This document shows, in pieces, positions 15,353 to 26,466 of a stretch of 64,000 nucleotides of DNA (positions within the stretch are counted from its first letter, which is position 1; each line of letters starts with the position of its first letter). The stretch comes from Nitrospirota bacterium (GTDB taxonomy: Bacteria > Nitrospirota > Thermodesulfovibrionia > Thermodesulfovibrionales > Dissulfurispiraceae), in assembly GCA_963710375.1 (NCBI GenBank), contig CAVPZX010000004.1, positions 32,001-96,000 of the forward strand, read 5' to 3'. Made by a program: the position numbers and the translations under genes. Under the pieces are notes generated by a model, which did not search any database, was not told where the DNA came from, and saw only the letters and a program-made list of their open reading frames with translations.

Positions 15353-17485
15353 ATGGGCTTCTGGAAAGACATCAATAGAGATTATCACGCAATCTTCGAG
15401 CGTGATCCAGCTGCAAGAAATGCTGTTGAGGTCCTGTTGACCTATCCGGGGTTTCATGCCATTTTTATGCACCGCATAAGCCATGCGCTCTGGAATCTTC
15501 GCATACCGGTCCTCCCCAGATTCCTGTCCCATGTAGCGCGGTTCCTCACCGGCATCGAGATTCATCCGGCCGCAAAAATAGGGAGCGGTTTCTTTATTGA
15601 TCACGGTATGGGAGTCGTCATAGGAGAGACTACAGAGATAGGGAATGATTGCCTCTTGTACCAGGGGGTGACACTTGGCGGCACGGGAAAAGAAAAAGGG
15701 AAGCGCCACCCGACACTCGGGAATAACGTGGTCGTAGGAACAGGAGCAAAGATACTTGGACCGATGAAGATAGGCGATTATGTTAAAATTGGCGCTAATT
15801 CGGTTGTTTTGAACCCTGTCCCGGATTACGCCATTGTTGTTGGCGTGCCTGGCCGGATCATAAAAAAGAAAGTCGTGCGGATGGAGGCTGGAGGCCCTGT
15901 TGAGGCGCTTGACCATGTGAAACTCCCGGACCCTGTAAATGAAAAAATGATAGAGTTCGCAGAGCAGATAGAAAAAATTGAAGCGAGGATCGATAAAATG
16001 GAAGGTAAAAGAGCGGGCATGAAGATATTCAATACCATGACAGGGAAAAAAGAAGACTTTATCCCCATAGAGAATGGCAAGGTGGGCATCTATGCCTGCG
16101 GAGTTACAGTCTACGACTATTCGCATATCGGCCATGCAAGGAGTGCCGTGGTTTTTGATATCATCAGCCGGTATCTGAGACATAAGGGATTCACAGTCAA
16201 ATATGTCAGGAACTTTACCGATATAGACGACAAAATAATAAAGCGGGCCAACGAGGAAGGGATCACATGGGACAAAGTCGCACAAAAATATATCGCCGGA
16301 TATTATGAGGATATGGACCGGCTCGGTGTAGCGCGGCCCGATTTGGAGCCGAGGGCAACAGACCATATAAAGGAAATGATTGGAGTCATAAAGGCGCTTA
16401 TTGATAATGGTCACGCCTACGTGTCCGATGGGAGCGTATATTTTGCTGTTGATACATTCCCCGACTATGGCAAGCTCTCAGGGAAAGAGCAAAAAGACCT
16501 CCTTGCAGGCGCGCGTGTCAATATTGAGGAAAATAAAAGGAACCCATCCGATTTTGCACTTTGGAAGGCCTCCAAAGAAAACGAACCGTGGTGGGAGAGC
16601 CCCTGGGGCAAAGGACGTCCGGGATGGCACATTGAATGCACGGCGATGGCAATCCGCCATCTCGGCGAATCTATTGACGTTCATGGCGGCGGCGCTGATC
16701 TTATCTTCCCACACCATGACAATGAGATAGCACAGTCAGAGGCATTCACCGGGAAGCCCTTCGCAAAATATTGGGTCCATAACGGCTTTATCACTATCGA
16801 TAAAGAGAAAATGTCAAAATCTCTTGGAAACTTCTTCACTATCCGTGAAATACTTGATAAATTCGATCCAGAGGTCATAAGACTATTCCTGATCTCAAGT
16901 CATTACCGCAGCCCTATTGAATTTTCGAGCGAACAGTTGCGCGATGCAGAATCATCTTTGGGCCGGTATTACAGCACTATTTCCAGGATCAATGAATTTT
17001 TATCCTGCACCCAGGCATCGGCGCCTAAGCCAAATAAGGATATAGACGAAATATCCGACGAACTCACTTCAGTGCTCGATAAATTTAAAGATCGGTTTGA
17101 AGAAGCGATGGACGATGATTTCAACACCGCCCTCGCAATAGGGCACGTCTTTGAGCTTATCAGGGTGATCAACAAATTCCTCGATGCGAAACCTCAAGGT
17201 AAGGATGCCCGGACACTGATAGAGCGGGCACGGGATACGCTGCATTTAGCAAACAGCGTGCTTAATCTATTCAACAGGACCCCGGCAAAATGGAATGTCG
17301 ATCTGCTGGCTATCAAGAAGATCCCTTTCACAGAGGTCGAGATAGAACAGAAGATAGAGGCCCGGCGGAGCGCAAGGGAGGACAAAGATTGGGCGCTGGC
17401 TGATTCAATCAGGAAAGAGCTTGAGGAGAAAGGGATACTGCTTGAAGATAAAAAGGACAGCACCGGCTGGAAAGTAAAGATTTAA
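15353..17485 (+). CDS. cysE-cysS: Serine O-acetyltransferase (CysE) fused in frame to cysteine--tRNA ligase (CysS)
   Basis: [26 protein letters not shown] in the N-terminal part; [28 protein letters not shown] in the C-terminal part; no stop between them. Confidence 0.9.
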
Positions 17486-19591: not shown

Positions 19592-20303
19592 CTATTTGAC
19601 TTCTATCTTGACAATGATATCTTCTGTCGAGGCCACGGGTTTGCCGTTCTTTATCGCTGGAATAAACCGCCACTTCCCTAGGCTGTCCAGCAGAATCCTG
19701 TTAAGACGTGGATTCGGAGTCGGCTTAGCGAGTCTCCACCGTTGCACTGCCATCTACGGCAATATGGAAGCGCGCCAGCGCAGCGGAATTGAATGCTCCC
19801 TCCCGCAGGTCATCCGGAATTTGAGGCATTGGGCGGACAATTGCCCGGGCTCCGCTGCTCGCGTATATATTACCCCGGGTCGAGCCCTTTACGTTATATG
19901 ACCCGGCCTGGGCGCTGCTGTTCGTTGAGATGTTCCCTGTAGCAGTGGCCTGGGCGCCGGCGGGAGCGGCGGCAGCAGGTAACGCCACAGCCGGGCTAGT
20001 TGTCACGGCAGCCGGCGGGCTAACCTGATGTGTCACAGGAGCCTGCTGTGGCTTTACCGGGGGCAGCGGTTTGGGCTTATGCGCGGCAGGCCGTTCATGT
20101 GTCGCAGCCGGAACAGACTGCTCAATCACCTGGGCATCGATGGGAAGCAGCTCTGCCGGCCGATAGGCGGACTTTTCCATAAAATACGCGAACCCCAATA
20201 ATGCGACTGCCCAAATCAGCAGGGCTGCCGGCAGCGTCCAGGGCAGGCGACGCCAGGGGTTGTCAATCTCAGCAGTCTGAGGCAATGGAAAGCCTTTATT
20301 CAT
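19592..20303 (-). CDS. tonB: Energy transducer TonB; apparent +1 frameshift near 19733
   Basis: TM anchor and Pro-rich linker. The C-terminal domain continues in the next frame as LAKPTPNPRLNRILLDSLGKWRFIPAIKNGKPVASTEDIIVKIEVK*. Confidence 0.8.
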
Positions 20304-20700
20304 TGTACTTCACAGCAATCAGAAAATGTTCTGCACCTGCATTACGTGCCTGGAGCATTGCCTGCACCACCACTCCCTCCGGCGCAGCGCTATCCGCCGC
20401 AACAATGATCTGCCCATTCAGACCCTTCAGCATGGGTTTTAGTGTTCCTGCCAGGTTGTCGAGAGTCACAGGGGTGCTGTCTATCAGGATTGCGCTTCCC
20501 TTCGTGATGGTAAGAGTGATCGGAGTTTTTGCCTGCATTGGCGCCGCTTTGCCCTGAGGCAGGTTGACCGGTAACGAATGGAGGTTCTGTAAAGAAAGCG
20601 AAGCTAGAATGAACGTTGCCAGCAGAAAGAACATCACGTCGATCATAGGGATAATTTCGATCCGCCCCTTCCGGTGCTGCCTGGACCTGCGCAGTTTCAT
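20296..20700 (-). CDS. exbD: Biopolymer transporter ExbD
   Basis: IEIIPMIDVMFFLL, VNLP, AAD motifs. Confidence 0.9.
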   Translation of the reverse strand: MKLRRSRQHRKGRIEIIPMIDVMFFLLATFILASLSLQNLHSLPVNLPQGKAAPMQAKTPITLTITKGSAILIDSTPVTLDNLAGTLKPMLKGLNGQIIVAADSAAPEGVVVQAMLQARNAGAEHFLIAVKYNE

Positions 20701-21341
20701 AGAGCGCTCCCGTTCTTTTCCTGGTCCATGCGGATATGATCGACAAGACGTGTGCCCAAACGCTCCATCTCATCCATGGTCCTGGATTGCAGATGCGCGA
20801 AGAAGTTGAACGAGAATAGGGCGATGATGGCGATGATAAGGCCAAGGGTCGTGGCGATCAGCGCCTGGGCCACGCCGCCTGTGATACCTGTAGGATTAAC
20901 CAGCCCGCTGCCTCCGATCAACTTGAATGACTCCATCATGCCGACAATGGTCCCTACAAGTCCAAGCAGCGGCGCAGCTGTAACAATTGTCTCCAATACC
21001 CACAGACCTCTGTTTAAGGCCTTCTCTATCAGCTGCGCCTCGTCGGCAGCGCGGGATTCAACCCACCATGCGGGATTGCTGCGGTTGTCGTAAATCACCT
21101 GGAAGAAGCGGCCGAAATAGTTGCCGGGGACAAGCGAGGCTGTCTGTTGCTTCAGGTCAGCCCAGGCAAACTCATAGGTCTCCACCAAGGTCAACAGGGA
21201 GGCAGGCAGCGCAACATAACGCCGGTATAAGTATGCCTTATCAAGAATAATTGCCAGGGCTATCACCCCTAAAGCCAACAGCGGGTAGATCATCGCTCCG
21301 CCGAATCTCAACTCTTCCAAAGCTATGTGTATCTCTTGCAT
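20697..21341 (-). CDS. exbB: MotA/TolQ/ExbB proton channel protein
   Basis: APLLGLVGTIVGM, GGVAQALIATTLGL; AGAGAGG RBS before ATG 21341. Confidence 0.9.
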   Translation of the reverse strand: MQEIHIALEELRFGGAMIYPLLALGVIALAIILDKAYLYRRYVALPASLLTLVETYEFAWADLKQQTASLVPGNYFGRFFQVIYDNRSNPAWWVESRAADEAQLIEKALNRGLWVLETIVTAAPLLGLVGTIVGMMESFKLIGGSGLVNPTGITGGVAQALIATTLGLIIAIIALFSFNFFAHLQSRTMDEMERLGTRLVDHIRMDQEKNGSAL

Positions 21342-21407
21342 TCTGAACCTCTCTATCTGATAGATTGTTGTGGAGGGGAACAAGTTCCCCTCCGCCAAAA
21401 TAATTTG

Positions 21408-23753
21408 CTAAAATAATTTGCTGATGCCGCCAAAGAACCCAATCCGCGGCCCGAACTGGGGTGCAAATACACCGATTCCGGTCCCGCTCCTGATTTCATT
21501 GACCTTGTCCAAAACGTTGATGATGCTCAGACGCGCCTCCATAGGGCCCAGGCACCCCAATGTAAACTTACGCATCGCCCCGAGATTGACCTGGAAGTTG
21601 CTTGGCACGTGCTCCGTATTGGCGAATCCGCTCCGCAAGCCGCTTCCGAAAGTGGCATCAGTGCTGAGCAGCGTTCCCAACCAGAGATAGGATATGCCTG
21701 CTGAAGCGGTATAGGTCTGGTCATGATCCGTATGTATCCAGTGGTTGGCTATGTAGTCCAGCTCATCCTGCCCAAAGTTAAACTGTGCCGACGCGACCTC
21801 TTTGGCCAGACTGCGCGTATAGGCAAAATTGGCATATGAGGTAAAATTGCCGAAGCGGTAGTTGCCGGTCAGTTCCACACCATAAATTTTCCCTTTTGTA
21901 TAATTAAAAGGGGTAAAGATCAGGGCCTGACCGAATTGGCCTTCGTCGATCAGATCTTTGATTATCTTGTAGTAGCCATCGACGCCGATGTTCAGCCCGG
22001 AAGTGATCTTCTGGGTCACCCCGGCATCGAAATAATGGGACCGTTCCGGCAAAACGGGTGAATTTAAATTGGTCGGGGACGCATTGGAGGTGTTCGAGAA
22101 CAGGTCCAATGTTTTTTGCGGGACCAACTCGGTTGGAGGCGGTGTGAAGTATCGGGAATAGGCGGCGTGGAGCGTGGTATCCGGTGTCGCCTTGTAAACC
22201 AGGCCCAGACGGGGACTCAGCTGGTCGGCCGTCACAAAAGCGTCCACCCGGTCATACCGGAGCCCATAGTTCACCGTCAATTTATCAAGCGGCTTCCACT
22301 CGTCCTGGAGATATAATGACAAGAGGGTGTTGCCGTTCTTTGGGTTGTCGTCCGTGATTGTGAAAGGCGCACCGAAAACGTCTCCGCTGGCGTCCACAGG
22401 GAAAACCGTGGAGGTGTTGTTGCTTTTGATATCTTCGTAGTTAAAGAAGTAGCCCATTCGGACCGTGTGAGCGTCGTTTAGTCGGTAACTTCCGTCACCC
22501 TGTAATCCGTTGCTGAAACTGCTGCGGAAAACATTTGATGCGACCCCGTTGAAAACAAGGTCGCCGATGGGGTCAGGCGTAAAATGTACGCTCGTGTAAT
22601 GGCTGACAAAGGATAATTGGTAATCGAAGTCAGACCCGATGGAGCTTTGCAAGGCTACGACCCCATATCGATTGTTCTCGTACTGCCGCTCATTCAGTGT
22701 GGCTGAGTCGAAGGAGGTAACACCCGCACCGGCCGGGAAGGTTGGATTGAGGGGCGGTTGACCCGGATTATTGGGGATTTGAAACTTGCCATCGTAGCTG
22801 CCTAACATCAGGCTTAACCGGGTCGTGGGATTAATAAGGTATGAAAAATACCCAAAGCCCTTTTCCTGGTCCGTGTGGTCATGGATCGCATTGGAACTGG
22901 AAGTGGGATTTTCGATACCCAGATTGTCCCCCATATAGGAACCGGTCAGATAGTAGGTAAAATTCCCCTTCGAACTTCCGAACTCGAAGCTCGGCTGCAC
23001 GGTGCTGCGGCTTCCCCCGTAGAGATCTACGCGTCCTCCTGTCTCATAGTTGGCCTTGGTATCTATTTCGATCACTCCTGCTGTACGAAGGCCGTATTGG
23101 GCCGGCAGGGCGCCCTCCAGAAGGTTGACCCTATCGACAAACCGGGTGTCCAGAGATTGGCCGAATCCGCTTATCCCTTCGGGCAGGATAACACCGTTAA
23201 TGCGGTACTGAATGTTAGCGTGGTCACCCCGCACATGCAGCTGGCCGAACGAGTCATTGGCAACGCCGGGCGCCTGGAGCAATACCTGGTTAAAGGACGT
23301 GTTGTCCCCCTGAGGTAAGGCGGCAATTGCATTCTTGTCGAGTGTGTATTCGCTGCCTCCTGTCTTTGGTGACAGGCCGTTTCGGGCCTGGTTCAAGCGC
23401 TCTGCCTGGACTGACACCTCCAACGCTTCCTGGGCGGCCATTGTAAGCGTAGTAGCGGCTATTGTTCCGGCCTCTACCGTCACGATGGCGGTGCTTGCCT
23501 GGAAGCCGGGTTTTTCCGCCAGAACAGCATAGGTGCCCGGCTTTACACTCGAAAACACGAAGTGGCCGTCGGCATCACTCTTGGTCTGACCCATGATGGT
23601 TTCATCGGGAGCTTTCAATATCAGACTTGCCCCGGACAGGGGCCTTCCCAGAGCGTCCCTGAGAGTCCCCTGGAGTTCGTCTGTTTGAGCAAACGCACCT
23701 GCTGAAAAAGATAGTAATATAAATAGCGTGATAAGCGTTGTCATTATTTTCAT
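21408..23753 (-). CDS. TonB-dependent outer-membrane receptor with N-terminal carboxypeptidase-regulatory-like domain
   Basis: Signal peptide, plug region (LHVRGDHANIQYRINGV, PAQYG), C-terminal Phe; heads the exbB-exbD-tonB operon. Confidence 0.9.
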   Translation of the reverse strand: MKIMTTLITLFILLSFSAGAFAQTDELQGTLRDALGRPLSGASLILKAPDETIMGQTKSDADGHFVFSSVKPGTYAVLAEKPGFQASTAIVTVEAGTIAATTLTMAAQEALEVSVQAERLNQARNGLSPKTGGSEYTLDKNAIAALPQGDNTSFNQVLLQAPGVANDSFGQLHVRGDHANIQYRINGVILPEGISGFGQSLDTRFVDRVNLLEGALPAQYGLRTAGVIEIDTKANYETGGRVDLYGGSRSTVQPSFEFGSSKGNFTYYLTGSYMGDNLGIENPTSSSNAIHDHTDQEKGFGYFSYLINPTTRLSLMLGSYDGKFQIPNNPGQPPLNPTFPAGAGVTSFDSATLNERQYENNRYGVVALQSSIGSDFDYQLSFVSHYTSVHFTPDPIGDLVFNGVASNVFRSSFSNGLQGDGSYRLNDAHTVRMGYFFNYEDIKSNNTSTVFPVDASGDVFGAPFTITDDNPKNGNTLLSLYLQDEWKPLDKLTVNYGLRYDRVDAFVTADQLSPRLGLVYKATPDTTLHAAYSRYFTPPPTELVPQKTLDLFSNTSNASPTNLNSPVLPERSHYFDAGVTQKITSGLNIGVDGYYKIIKDLIDEGQFGQALIFTPFNYTKGKIYGVELTGNYRFGNFTSYANFAYTRSLAKEVASAQFNFGQDELDYIANHWIHTDHDQTYTASAGISYLWLGTLLSTDATFGSGLRSGFANTEHVPSNFQVNLGAMRKFTLGCLGPMEARLSIINVLDKVNEIRSGTGIGVFAPQFGPRIGFFGGISKLF

Positions 23754-23785
23754 GCACTTCTCCTGTTGCGAAAATTTTTTCCATT

Positions 23786-23870
23786 AGAATCAGAGAAGGG
23801 GAGAAAGGGCGAATCGGAGCAACAGACTTTTCTCCGTTTCCCAGATTCACCGGTTCACCCTTTCGATTCT
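23786..23870. repeat. Imperfect purine/pyrimidine palindrome related to 43516-43580
   Basis: ggagaaagggcgaatcgg...agacttttctccg...ttcaccc pattern shared with ggagaaaggg...agacttgtctccgattcaccc. Confidence 0.45.
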
Positions 23871-23906
23871 TGCCTTATATCCCTCTGTGGTTAAGCATAT
23901 AGGGGT

Positions 23907-24182
23907 TCAGGCAGGAGGAGCGCGGCTGTCAAGCGCGGATCGGCGTATCGACGCTAATAAGAATTTCTTTTCAGATACGACCACGCCAAAAAAGATATAA
24001 AATACGGCGAAAGGAAAGTAATAGTGAATTACTGAACATACCTGATGTGCGGCTACGCAGATAGGACAATCGTCATGGTCGCAATCATCATCGTGATGAT
24101 GAAAGGCTATTATAAAAATACCGACCACCAGGAGAAACAACGCCAAACAAATAAAACTTTTAGTGCTTCTTTTGTTCAGCAT
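23907..24182 (-). CDS. DUF2946/CruR-like leader peptide (TM segment, His-rich CxxC, C-terminal RAPP)
   Basis: HHHDDDCDHDDCPIC and terminal SRAPPA; lies directly upstream of the TonB-dependent receptor. Confidence 0.75.
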   Translation of the reverse strand: MLNKRSTKSFICLALFLLVVGIFIIAFHHHDDDCDHDDCPICVAAHQVCSVIHYYFPFAVFYIFFGVVVSEKKFLLASIRRSALDSRAPPA

Positions 24183-24248
24183 CTATTTTCCTTAGAGACT
24201 ATTTTCATCATAAATTATTTAAGATTTACAAAATAAACGGAATAATGC

Positions 24249-24294
24249 AAATAGAAATCACTTCTATTTTAAATTATGCTTCTGCATTTGTAAA
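24249..24294 (-). promoter_or_regulatory. Sigma70 promoter overlapped by a 10-1-10 Fur-family-like operator
   Basis: Minus strand TTTACA-N17-TAAAAT (24294-24266); palindrome AAATAGAAAT-C-ACTTCTATTT (24249-24269, 1 mismatch). Confidence 0.6.
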
Positions 24295-24325
24295 GAGACC
24301 CCTGCCGATCCAATATAAATTAATA

Positions 24326-24501
24326 GCAGTAGAAGGGGAGTACTTGTTTTTCGACGCGATGCACGGGTCTACTGTAACGGGGGCGAGTAACGCCGAGCCC
24401 TACCTGAGAATGGATTCGGGTATCGCTGCTATAGGAAGATTGGGAATTGCTGACTGAGGTAGTTTCAGCGCGTCGAAAAACAAGTACTCCCCTTCTACTG
24501 C
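24326..24501. repeat. Palindromic element with perfect 33-bp terminal inverted repeats and internal REP-like motif
   Basis: GCAGTAGAAGGGGAGTACTTGTTTTTCGACGCG (24326-24358) is the reverse complement of 24469-24501; internal 20-mer is identical to one in the 41023-41193 element. Confidence 0.85.
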
Positions 24502-24520
24502 CTTCCTTATTTTTTCCCCC

Positions 24521-24550
24521 TTGACAGTGAACGATTGTTCACTCTATAAT
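24521..24550 (+). promoter_or_regulatory. Consensus sigma70 promoter with SOS-box-like palindrome in the spacer
   Basis: TTGACA-N18-TATAAT with AGTGAAC-GATT-GTTCACT (GAAC-N4-GTTC) between the boxes. Confidence 0.8.
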
Positions 24551-24556
24551 TTCCTC

Positions 24557-25150
24557 ATGCCATCTATCTCTCAGAATGAAACCTTGAAGGCGAGAATCGC
24601 GGAAATTGCCCGTTTTCACCATGACAAGGGACGGATGCCCAGTTTTTCGGAATTGGGGAAACTGACAGGACTCAGATCGAAGAATGCCGTACATAAGCTT
24701 GTTACCAAGCTGGAGACAATAAAGGTCCTTTCCAGGGATGACAAGGGCCGTCTAATTCCCCGATCCCTTGCCTCTCCGGTGAAGGTCCTGGGCACGGTCG
24801 AGGCCGGGTTCCCAAGCCCTGCGGAAGAGGAGTTGCTGGATACCCTCTCTCTGGACCAGTACCTCATTGATAACCCCAATGCGACCTTTCTGCTGAAAAT
24901 ATCGGGTGATTCCATGTCGGAAGCCGGAATCCTGCCTGGAGACATGGTGCTGGTGGACCGGAGCCGTACGGCCCAAAGCGGGGATATCATCATAGCCGAA
25001 GTGGACGGCGCCTGGACTATGAAATACTTAAAGAAAAGGGGCCAGACCATTGCCCTGGTTCCCGCCAATTCCCGTTATAAGCCCATTGTTCCTAAGAACG
25101 AACTCAAGATAGCCGGAGTGGTGGTCGCCGTCGTCAGAAAATACCGGTAG
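24557..25150 (+). CDS. LexA/UmuD-like S24 peptidase with N-terminal HTH
   Basis: RMPSFSELGKLTGLRSKNAV HTH; Ala-Gly cleavage site VEAGFP; catalytic GDSM and TMKY. Confidence 0.85.
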   Translation: MPSISQNETLKARIAEIARFHHDKGRMPSFSELGKLTGLRSKNAVHKLVTKLETIKVLSRDDKGRLIPRSLASPVKVLGTVEAGFPSPAEEELLDTLSLDQYLIDNPNATFLLKISGDSMSEAGILPGDMVLVDRSRTAQSGDIIIAEVDGAWTMKYLKKRGQTIALVPANSRYKPIVPKNELKIAGVVVAVVRKYR

Positions 25151-25152
25151 CC

Positions 25153-26466
25153 ATGGACTCTCAGCCCATTACCATCAGCTCCTGGCCCCGTGCCATCTTG
25201 CATATCGATGCTGATGCCTTTTTCGCATCATGCGAGCAGGCGGTCCACCCGGAACTGAGGGGGAAGCCCGTAATCACCGGCAAGGAGCGGGGGATTGTTG
25301 CTGCGGCGAGTTACGAGGCGAAGGCCCGTGGGGTGCAGAGGGGAATGAGGCTTTTTGAGGTAAAGAAGGTCTGCCCTGATGCGGTCATCCTTCCTTCAGA
25401 TTATGAGACGTACAGCCTGTTTTCCGTCCGGATGTTCGGCATCCTCCGCAGATTCTCACCTGACGTGGAGGAGTATTCAATCGATGAGGCCTTTGTGGAC
25501 CTTACCGGACTGCGCAGATCCTTCCACGGCCCCTACGGGATGATTGCTCAACAGATACAGGAGACCATGGGGAAGGAACTGGGATTTACCGTATCCATAG
25601 GAGTGAGTCTTTCAAAGGTTTTGGCGAAGATTGCATCCAAGTGGAAGAAACCGCACGGACTCACCCTGATCCCTGGCAGGGACATCCACCTTTATCTGCA
25701 GAAACTTCCCATCGAGAAAGTCTGGGGTATTGGCCCCAATACTTCGGCCTACCTGAGGAAGTTCGGGATTAATACTGCGCTGGATTACGCCTGTAAAGGC
25801 GAGGAGTTTATAAAAGAAAGGCTCTCCAAACCTTATCGGGAAATATGGCAGGAGTTGAACGGCCACAGTGTTTACCCTGTTGTAACCGAAACCAAGAGCA
25901 GCTATCAGTCAATCAGCAAGGCAAAAACTTTCACCCCTCCTTCACAGGACGAGGCGTTTGTCTTTGCACAGCTTTCGAAGAACCTTGAGGCTGCATGTAT
26001 CAAGGCTAGACGTTATAAGCTTGCGGCCGGTCGGTTAATCCTATTTCTCCGCACACAGGACTTCAGGAGTGAAGGTGTAGAGTTGAGTCTGGATCGTCCA
26101 AGTGCCTTCCCTTCGGACTTGTTTGGTCCCCTCAAGGAAGGATTCAAAACAATATTCCACAATAGGACTCTTTATCGTCAAACAGGGGTGGTGCTTGCGG
26201 GACTAAAGCCGGAAGGGGATGTCCAGTTTACTCTTTTTGATGATACCGCCCGGATAGAGAAAATGGCACGGATTTATTCGGCAGTTGACGACCTCTCAGC
26301 CAAGTACGGTAAATATGCTATACACCACGGGGCCAGCTTGCCTACGAAACTGCAGGCGAGGCATGAGGGGGAAAGGGGAGATACGCCGGAGAGGACGAAG
26401 GAGTTATTTAAAGGGGAAAACGGAAGGCAGAGGCTGGGATTGCCGGTATTAAGGATGAAGGTGTAA
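25153..26466 (+). CDS. Y-family DNA polymerase (DinB/UmuC-like)
   Basis: HIDADAFFASCE, AASYEAK, YSIDEAFVD, LAKIAS, VWGIG. Confidence 0.92.
   Translation: MDSQPITISSWPRAILHIDADAFFASCEQAVHPELRGKPVITGKERGIVAAASYEAKARGVQRGMRLFEVKKVCPDAVILPSDYETYSLFSVRMFGILRRFSPDVEEYSIDEAFVDLTGLRRSFHGPYGMIAQQIQETMGKELGFTVSIGVSLSKVLAKIASKWKKPHGLTLIPGRDIHLYLQKLPIEKVWGIGPNTSAYLRKFGINTALDYACKGEEFIKERLSKPYREIWQELNGHSVYPVVTETKSSYQSISKAKTFTPPSQDEAFVFAQLSKNLEAACIKARRYKLAAGRLILFLRTQDFRSEGVELSLDRPSAFPSDLFGPLKEGFKTIFHNRTLYRQTGVVLAGLKPEGDVQFTLFDDTARIEKMARIYSAVDDLSAKYGKYAIHHGASLPTKLQARHEGERGDTPERTKELFKGENGRQRLGLPVLRMKV

Follow-up and report, generated by a model that had tools for sequence, protein, structure and literature searches.

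The window analysed in this work, 64,000 nucleotides corresponding to contig positions 32001-96000 of a 3.19-Mb Nitrospirota genome (completeness 98.8%), harbors on its minus strand an operon whose first gene is a short leader ORF, placed 153 nt before the gene of a TonB-dependent receptor (Table 1). A preliminary description of this DNA had proposed that the operon is controlled by metals at two layers, that is, by a Fur-like operator and by a CruR-like leader peptide. The gene order receptor-exbB-exbD-tonB given there was borne out by ORF reading and domain search. In the window an extra base at position 19733 puts tonB into two frames; since the contigs from all four sequencing runs (one of which may be the source of the window) lack this base, the split is an assembly error and the operon is intact, and the existence of a tonB pseudogene is ruled out. 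No copper genes flank the operon. The genome encodes subunit I of an aa3-type cytochrome c oxidase, and therefore needs copper, and a search for dsrA in it gave no hit; hence, neither the idea that the organism is an anaerobe nor that it is a sulfate reducer is supported. Neither NikR nor PCuAC was found in this 98.8%-complete genome, which speaks against control of the operon by NikR; a gene for Rho is present.

Table 1. Features of the leader-receptor operon and of its control region (window positions).
Feature	Positions	Strand	Basis or remark
TonB-dependent receptor, 781 aa	21408..23753	minus	CarboxypepD_reg, plug and barrel domains; invariant His/Asp residues; no close solved relative
exbB	20697..21398	minus	
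exbD	20296..20700	minus	
tonB	19592..20303	minus	in two frames here owing to an assembly error of one base (19733)
-35 hexamer TTTACA	24289..24294	minus	invariant in seven aligned kin
-10 hexamer TAAAAT	24266..24271	minus	conserved less than the -35 in kin
21-bp palindromic operator, Zur-type box (predicted)	24249..24269	none	covers the last four bases of the -10
Leader SD-like AAGGA	24189..24193	minus	sequence
91-aa CruR/DUF2946-like leader ORF	23907..24182	minus	ORF reading, homologs, profile search
N-terminal hydrophobic segment (residues 10-28), signal peptide or membrane anchor	24099..24155	minus	hydropathy
His/Asp tract and CxxC (H28, H30, H36, D38, C39, C42 invariant)	24057..24101	minus	alignment
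RAPP codons, putative site of arrest and putative anti-Shine-Dalgarno arm	23913..23924	minus	alignment, folding
Long self-contained spacer hairpin, predicted to bring RAPP codons and receptor SD together	23787..23864	minus	folding
Receptor Shine-Dalgarno region (AGGAG 23764-23760), predicted to pair with the RAPP codons	23754..23765	minus	folding

Three further features of the surrounding DNA can be mentioned. Just upstream of the promoter (24321-24510) lies a MITE-like element of about 186 nt with 36-nt terminal inverted repeats (97% complementary), which has six other near-full copies and partial ones in the genome and a high depth in metagenomes. At 24521-26466, a perfect TTGACA-N18-TATAAT promoter precedes lexA/umuD-like and dinB/umuC-like genes and holds a GTGAAC-N5-GTTCAC palindrome, likely an operator of the SOS type. 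Lastly, a single 710-aa ORF (15353-17485) resembles, by inspection, a serine acetyltransferase fused to a cysteinyl-tRNA synthetase, and is a candidate either for a gene fusion or for an assembly error.

The promoter TTTACA-N17-TAAAAT (24294-24266, minus strand) agrees with the consensus at 10 of 12 positions and is overlapped, as had been described, by a 10-1-10 palindrome, the arms of which are complementary at nine of ten positions. Bare palindromes of this form number 143 in the genome (23 of them AT-rich) and so are no rarity; the operator derives its weight from conservation. The box, AAATAGAAAT-N-ATTTCTATTT, recurs within five mismatches upstream of all 15 zur-like genes found in relatives (background windows showing 5-12 mismatches); these regulator homologs come from 15 of the 41 genomes searched, and 14 of the 15 genes are followed by an ORF resembling a substrate-binding protein. 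When a matrix built from 11 sites, all of them in other genomes, was used to scan the 3.19 Mb, the window site ranked first (28.3) and the promoter of the genome's own zur-znuACB second (21.2), the next three matches overlapping coding sequence; the own zur site, however, exceeds an intragenic one (20.1) by merely 1.1 bits, a point against control at two layers. The regions upstream of the genome's fur-like and perR-like genes scored -3.0 and -7.4, respectively, and with scores below zero Fur and PerR are ruled out as cognate regulators. A Zur box between leader and receptor is likewise ruled out, since the highest spacer score is -1.8 in the window and does not exceed 5.2 at any of 29 loci.

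The cognate regulator would be a Fur-family protein encoded on another contig of the same genome (C2, 585874-586287), whose gene carries the second-best box at its start and is followed by ZnuA/C/B-like genes. Its invariant C82 aligns with C79 of the Streptomyces coelicolor Zur, a residue described as essential for zinc sensing (PMC6103462), whereas Fur and PerR chains have no cysteine there; autoregulation is reported to be typical of zur genes lying within znu operons (PMC6103462). On the other hand, in overall similarity this regulator is closer to the models of Fur and PerR than to those of Zur, without passing the cut-off of any: it falls below that of the curated Zur model (PRK11639, 40 bits versus 167), and no Fur, PerR or Zur equivalog model was passed. 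Another point against two layers is that no more than 8 of the 29 leader loci, two ZnuA-type operons among them, are preceded by a box scoring at least 15, so that the box is rarer than the leader. In spite of this, a palindrome lying over the promoter and shared with the zur/znu promoters, together with a Fur-family protein that has the sensory-site cysteine and is encoded in an operon with a ZnuABC-type system, is what a Zur regulon presents. Hence the operator described as Fur-like can be narrowed to a Zur-type one; we hold with high confidence that a Zur operator covers the promoter, the palindrome being in all likelihood its box. The earlier suggestion of Zn, Ni or Co rather than Cu is thereby narrowed to zinc, for the transcriptional layer only.

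As regards the leader, the 91-aa ORF is present at 24182-23907 with the HHHDDDCDHDDCPIC segment and the terminal RAPPA that had been pointed out. The transmembrane segment, also foreseen, corresponds to an N-terminal hydrophobic stretch (residues 10-28, KD19 maximum 2.9) following a basic N-terminus; a second, weaker hydrophobic segment (KD19 about 1.7) is present as well. Two such segments occur in the leader subfamily, and a hydrophobic N-terminus occurs in all the full-length homologs. The tetrapeptide RAPP is absent from the 1331 genome ORFs of at least 300 aa (AAPP occurs seven times in them), and of the ten frames of the genome ending in R[AG]PP the leader alone has a CxxC upstream. A homolog search with the leader retrieved 37 proteins, the nearest named relatives being Nitrospirota assemblies; the alignment comprised the query and 33 of them (34 sequences), four having been omitted as close relatives of the query. 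Ten residues are invariant among the 34, namely H28, H30, H36, D38, C39, C42 and R87-A88-P89-P90, the last four ending one residue from the stop; the linker drifts. The gap between CxxC and RAPP is 44 residues in the leader and 45 in CruR, within a test range of 45 ± 2. A profile search gave 1297 cluster representatives at E<=0.001; among the best 150, 143 show an R-x-PP end, a CxxC 42-47 residues upstream and an HxH earlier, a figure which is partly circular because the profile selects for these features.

The resemblance to CruR proposed beforehand stood as far as CxxC, RAPP, their spacing and the first-gene position are concerned, but not on the HMM check against DUF2946: the leader gave no match to PF11162 (gathering cut-off 23.7 bits), nor did Pfam and NCBIfam hold any family for it. 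Of the aligned members, 17 of 34 match PF11162 at E<=10 and two (P0033, 28.3; P0030, 25.7) pass the cut-off; the leader's top Atlas match (0.94) is a cluster automatically named 'putative DUF2946 family protein'. As judged from the alignment, the leader is a real, conserved CruR/DUF2946-like gene; it appears to be a divergent relative of CruR with CruR-like anatomy, although not a member by the Pfam test. The two hydrophobic segments might be taken to suggest a small metal-binding protein of the membrane or periplasm acting in trans, RAPP and RNA pairing being incidental, but we consider this very improbable, since the terminal RAPP is invariant, the CxxC-RAPP spacing is fixed despite a variable linker, the gene sits directly upstream of transporter genes and its codons are biased towards the anti-Shine-Dalgarno sequence. 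We regard the leader, with good confidence, as a putative arrest peptide acting in cis.

A homolog of the receptor occurs in 51 of 251 genomes of the phylum and, besides the window, 29 loci were retrieved; a leader lies upstream of five of seven close receptor homologs (two of these leaders ending RPPP) and of 21 of 22 distant ones, so that the ORF is conserved upstream of homologous receptors. The distant receptors form one family present in all 39 genomes searched. All 21 of their leaders have HH...HEHSDxD[LI]C, followed 46 residues on by RAPP or RGPP, and no CxxC, and they align with the family of the window leader (hhalign 91%, E 9e-7). The part that stays constant is thus the His/Asp cluster with one cysteine. 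At loci L089-L109 the motif reads HHELAAADHDGHEHSDxDLC and the gap is constant at 46 residues; these leaders are a natural variant, rich in His and with a single Cys.

An R-x-PP leader stands ahead of transporter-type genes at 27 of 29 loci taken from a genome collection. By inspection, these leaders are followed in 11 cases by receptors of the window type and in four by other TonB receptors (two confirmed by Pfam); a further 11 head a gene for a porin-like protein and one for a substrate-binding protein, which was confirmed as ZnuA in five of five cases tested, one of these operons also embedding nikR. The remaining leader heads a CusA/CzcA efflux system, for which the opposite polarity of control would be needed, in conflict with the two-layer scheme; this locus (L023, 5890-12057) encodes an outer-membrane factor, a CusB-like protein and the pump, and presents no predicted RAPP:SD pairing. 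The porin-like protein (L006, L008, L011, L014, L015, L017, L018, L020-L022, L024, L054-L056), unannotated, 360-490 aa long and encoded between the leader and the ZnuA-type operon, usually has an N-terminal coiled coil and almost no Pfam match; it is a candidate for an outer-membrane metal channel. Other variants were observed in relatives. A second copy of the receptor operon, behind a gene with a HupE/UreJ domain (L116, 5548-9765), has a shortened leader in which the HDDCPIC motif is lost and RAPP is kept. One relative has two related small CxxC ORFs ending KAPPA (L058, 1498-1779; L061, 1483-1761), the former lying, by inspection, between fur-like and feoA-like genes, possibly an iron-side variant.

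The context of receptor orthologs is in accord with a Zur-type operator. The Paraburkholderia one (55%) lies within a zigA/zinc-ABC/fur cluster, that of Methylocystis (50%) precedes a metal substrate-binding protein and a repressor, that of Bradyrhizobium (51.5%) stands behind an annotated DUF2946 gene and that of Polymorphobacter (47%) between nikR and a repressor; the Sphingomonas ortholog has no annotated metal-uptake context. In the receptor itself the invariant potential ligands are His and Asp, with no invariant Met or Cys. An alignment-based model (pLDDT 77) matched generic TonB receptors only, at 16% identity or less, and is uninformative on the substrate; a fold from the single sequence reached pLDDT 33.

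On these data we lean, if modestly, towards zinc as the ligand of the leader too. A different metal might nonetheless be read by the two layers, Zur controlling the promoter and the leader sensing copper (or Ni/Co) and shutting the importer against a competing metal during zinc starvation. For copper speak the CxxC, which is the copper motif of CruR and stands at CruR's spacing, the response to copper of both DUF2946 members reported as tested (PMC9426467; 10.1101/2025.02.05.636593) and the aa3-type oxidase of this genome; for Ni/Co, the nikR and hupE/ureJ genes that adjoin some relatives' loci, which indeed argue against two zinc gates, and the linking of His-only CutF-like proteins to Ni/Co in PMC9973294. 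Nevertheless, the first cysteine is gone from the leaders of distant receptors in this family, whereas their His/Asp cluster is retained, the receptor's invariant potential ligands are His and Asp, the operon is unflanked by copper genes, and neither NikR nor PCuAC was found in the 98.8%-complete genome; we judge this alternative unlikely.

The spacer, foreseen as about 150 nt of structured RNA, measures 153 nt and is indeed structured: the region 23730-23960 folds at -72.6 kcal/mol (z = -3.9, equalled by none of 200 shuffles). In the best fold a self-contained hairpin is enclosed by a helix between the RAPP codons (23912-23923) and the receptor SD (23754-23765). The natural encoding of RAPP gives the strongest SD duplex among 384 synonymous ones (-17.5 versus a mean of -9.3); when the same comparison was made at 28 loci, 27 natural encodings exceeded the median, 18 of them reaching the top quartile and 12 the top decile. 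In a second set of 24 loci, where several starts were chosen automatically and are doubtful, just 13 were in the top quartile, which weakens the case for occlusion. The folding set omitted L012, L013 and L030 (start uncertain), L026 and L027 (no R-x-PP), L047-L053 and L057 (apparent duplicates or the window itself) and L058-L061 (motif pattern unmatched). The first proline codon is CCT in 23 of 28 leaders, the corresponding values being 112 of 774 (14.5%) in the downstream genes and 334 of 978 (34%) in the PP pairs of the own genome; among the distant leaders it is CCT in 14 of 21 (background 63/646). Duplexes between RAPP codons and the SD of the same locus are stronger than swapped ones (-13.9 versus -12.5, p = 0.003; p = 0.009 with 23 dereplicated loci, kin not being independent). 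Against these figures it must be said that proline codons are inherently anti-SD-like, that masking a stalled ribosome lowers the opening cost of the window's RBS by merely 1.7 kcal/mol, leaving two AGGAG bases mostly paired, and that the gain exceeds 1 kcal/mol at only 18 of 28 loci.

Spacers range from 40 to 330 nt across loci and differ widely in length and sequence. A repeat similar to the hairpin at 23787-23864 occurs at four further sites of the genome, and in kin different self-pairing inserts, often closed by ACCACAG...CTGTGG, occupy the position of this hairpin; this suggests that the interval separating the SD from the RAPP arm can accept inserts. Rfam gave no match at E<=1 in 23300-24700, and no intrinsic terminator was found on the minus strand of leader or spacer. 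It is worth considering that both layers exist and that the stalled ribosome shields a C-rich loading site for Rho, the output being transcription termination in the spacer. Rho is present, C outnumbers G by 24 to 12 in the 60 nt surrounding the RAPP codons, the spacer is close to the 162 nt of CruR, CCT codons also enrich C/U, and the computed gain in RBS opening is small. However, a rut site needs no arm matching the SD of each locus, and the spacer, the C-rich stretch included, is predicted mostly paired; in addition, Rho termination and SD occlusion could coexist. As a replacement for occlusion, termination by Rho seems to us improbable, although it is a live rival. In silico, a structure hiding the SD and disrupted by a stalled ribosome, as in CutF and SecM, is predicted at this locus, with a modest gain. 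The modelled anatomy of the mRNA would thus favor SD occlusion in the CutF/SecM style at least as much as Rho termination in the CruR style, and SD occlusion probably contributes.

Taking together operator, leader and spacer, we propose, with a probability of roughly 0.5, that the operon is governed by two metal gates in series, Zur and a stalling leader with SD occlusion, the metal being most likely zinc. With ample cytoplasmic zinc, Zur would sit on the palindrome over the -10 and block transcription. At the second gate, the leader would stall the ribosome on the RAPP codons, which otherwise would pair with the receptor SD and hide it; with scarce metal, the stalled ribosome would keep the helix open, and the receptor and ExbBD-TonB would be made. 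Binding of a divalent metal, most likely zinc, to the exported His/Asp/Cys cluster, which is some 47-61 residues away from the stall site, would free the ribosome, whereupon the helix would form again and less receptor would be made. We infer the direction of this control (stall when metal is scarce, release when it is bound) from the logic of an importer and from CruR. The ribosome tunnel holds about 30-40 residues. Since 53-61 residues separate it from the stall and it directly follows the hydrophobic segment, the His tract might by analogy with CutF face the periplasm, although CruR is reported to work without its signal peptide (PMC9426467).

The conserved hydrophobic N-terminus would also suit a SecM-like monitor of export or of disulfide formation, in which the pull of the translocon or the oxidation of the cysteines frees the stall and metals play no role here; RAPP peptides are described as secretion monitors (PMC10987492) and a disulfide role was proposed for CutF (10.1101/2025.02.05.636593). 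This seems to us decidedly improbable, as the His residues are invariant, the downstream genes code for metal transporters and not for sec proteins, and a CxxC disulfide is impossible in the single-Cys variants.

The component parts of the proposed two-gate control are already known, and a Zur-linked DUF2946 gene has already been tabulated for Caulobacter (PMC4176598). What is added here is the predicted pairing of the RAPP codons with the receptor SD, and the 21 distant leaders keeping a His cluster without CxxC. We regard the locus as a well-supported two-layer regulatory anatomy, likely the zinc-side version of a switch tested for copper alone: the metal-responsive arrest leaders reported as tested (CruR, CutF) respond to copper, the non-copper members being only predicted in PMC9973294, where His-only ones near HupE/UreJ are proposed and the main text does not use the word 'zinc'. 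In the literature we found no tested zinc-sensing RAPP leader, although supplementary protein lists (e.g., that of PMC9973294) may name the family. The locus offers a compact zinc test case, with a defined operator and cognate regulator, a two-site regulon and a natural CxxC-less variant, and the predicted helix could be broken by silent codon changes leaving the peptide untouched; if the scheme is true, one stretch of 12 nt would be at once arrest code and RNA switch. More tentatively, one may speculate that the RAPP leaders of the His-rich branch sense zinc by way of the ribosome, on the outer side of the inner membrane, with Zur reading the cytoplasm, so that the two would form an AND gate on zinc import, with the arrest codons acting as anti-Shine-Dalgarno across a spacer variable from 40 to 330 nt and the CxxC being dispensable.

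Among known systems, the closest is CruR (Bp2923, DUF2946/PF11162), encoded upstream of BfrG in Bordetella pertussis (PMC9426467), with which the window leader shares the position upstream, a putative export signal, the CxxC, a gap of about 45 residues, the terminal RAPP, a spacer of 150-160 nt, a TonB receptor downstream and the logic of an importer. In CruR the gap of 45 is described as conserved within one or two residues, and five added residues impair control (PMC9426467); arrest at RAPP was toeprinted in vitro (PMC12992588). In contrast with CruR, the window leader has an extra invariant His/Asp tract, is 91 rather than 145 aa long and misses the Pfam model; its operon has a Zur-type operator and a receptor of zinc-type context, and occlusion of the SD by the RAPP codons is predicted where Rho termination was shown for CruR. 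PMC12992588, the main text of which does not mention Shine-Dalgarno sequences or codon usage, describes RAPP leaders preceding TonB receptors as widespread among Gram-negative bacteria. DUF2946 has been tied to copper uptake by fitness data (10.1101/072470), and according to PMC9426467 no riboswitch is known for Cu or Zn.

On the side of Zur, the palindrome over the promoter resembles that of Zur-repressed TonB receptors, and the regulator's own ZnuA/C/B-type operon, sharing the box, resembles autoregulated zur-znuABC operons (PMC4176598; PMC6103462). The window box, AAATAGAAAT-N-ATTTCTATTT, is nonetheless unlike the Caulobacter sites listed in PMC4176598, the receptor has at most 16% identity to solved ones, and a leader ORF stands between operator and receptor. 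In Caulobacter crescentus, CC2720 combines a Zur box and a DUF2946 gene before the zinc-transport genes czrCBA-zntA, but there the operon is for efflux, Zur is an activator and the gene is tabulated as hypothetical, not as an arrest peptide (PMC4176598). PA0433-PA0434 are listed as up-regulated beside Zur-regulon genes (PMC9431628).

With CutF, encoded upstream of cutO in Rhodobacter capsulatus (PMC9973294; 10.1101/2025.02.05.636593), the leader would share the features of an exported nascent metal sensor and of a stalled ribosome melting a structure that shields the SD; CutF differs in its CxxxC and PPP, and in that copper promotes the stall and drives a detoxifying enzyme via an intergenic stem-loop, whereas for the window the prediction is that the arrest codons, 153 nt upstream, double as the anti-SD and that metal would end the stall. 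Sequestration of the SD by arrest peptides is established (PMC10987492), and SecM, MifM and ApdA/ApdP likewise join RAPP-type arrest to SD sequestration of the next gene; they differ from the window leader in that they monitor protein export, precede sec/yidC genes and have no metal cluster (PMC10987492).
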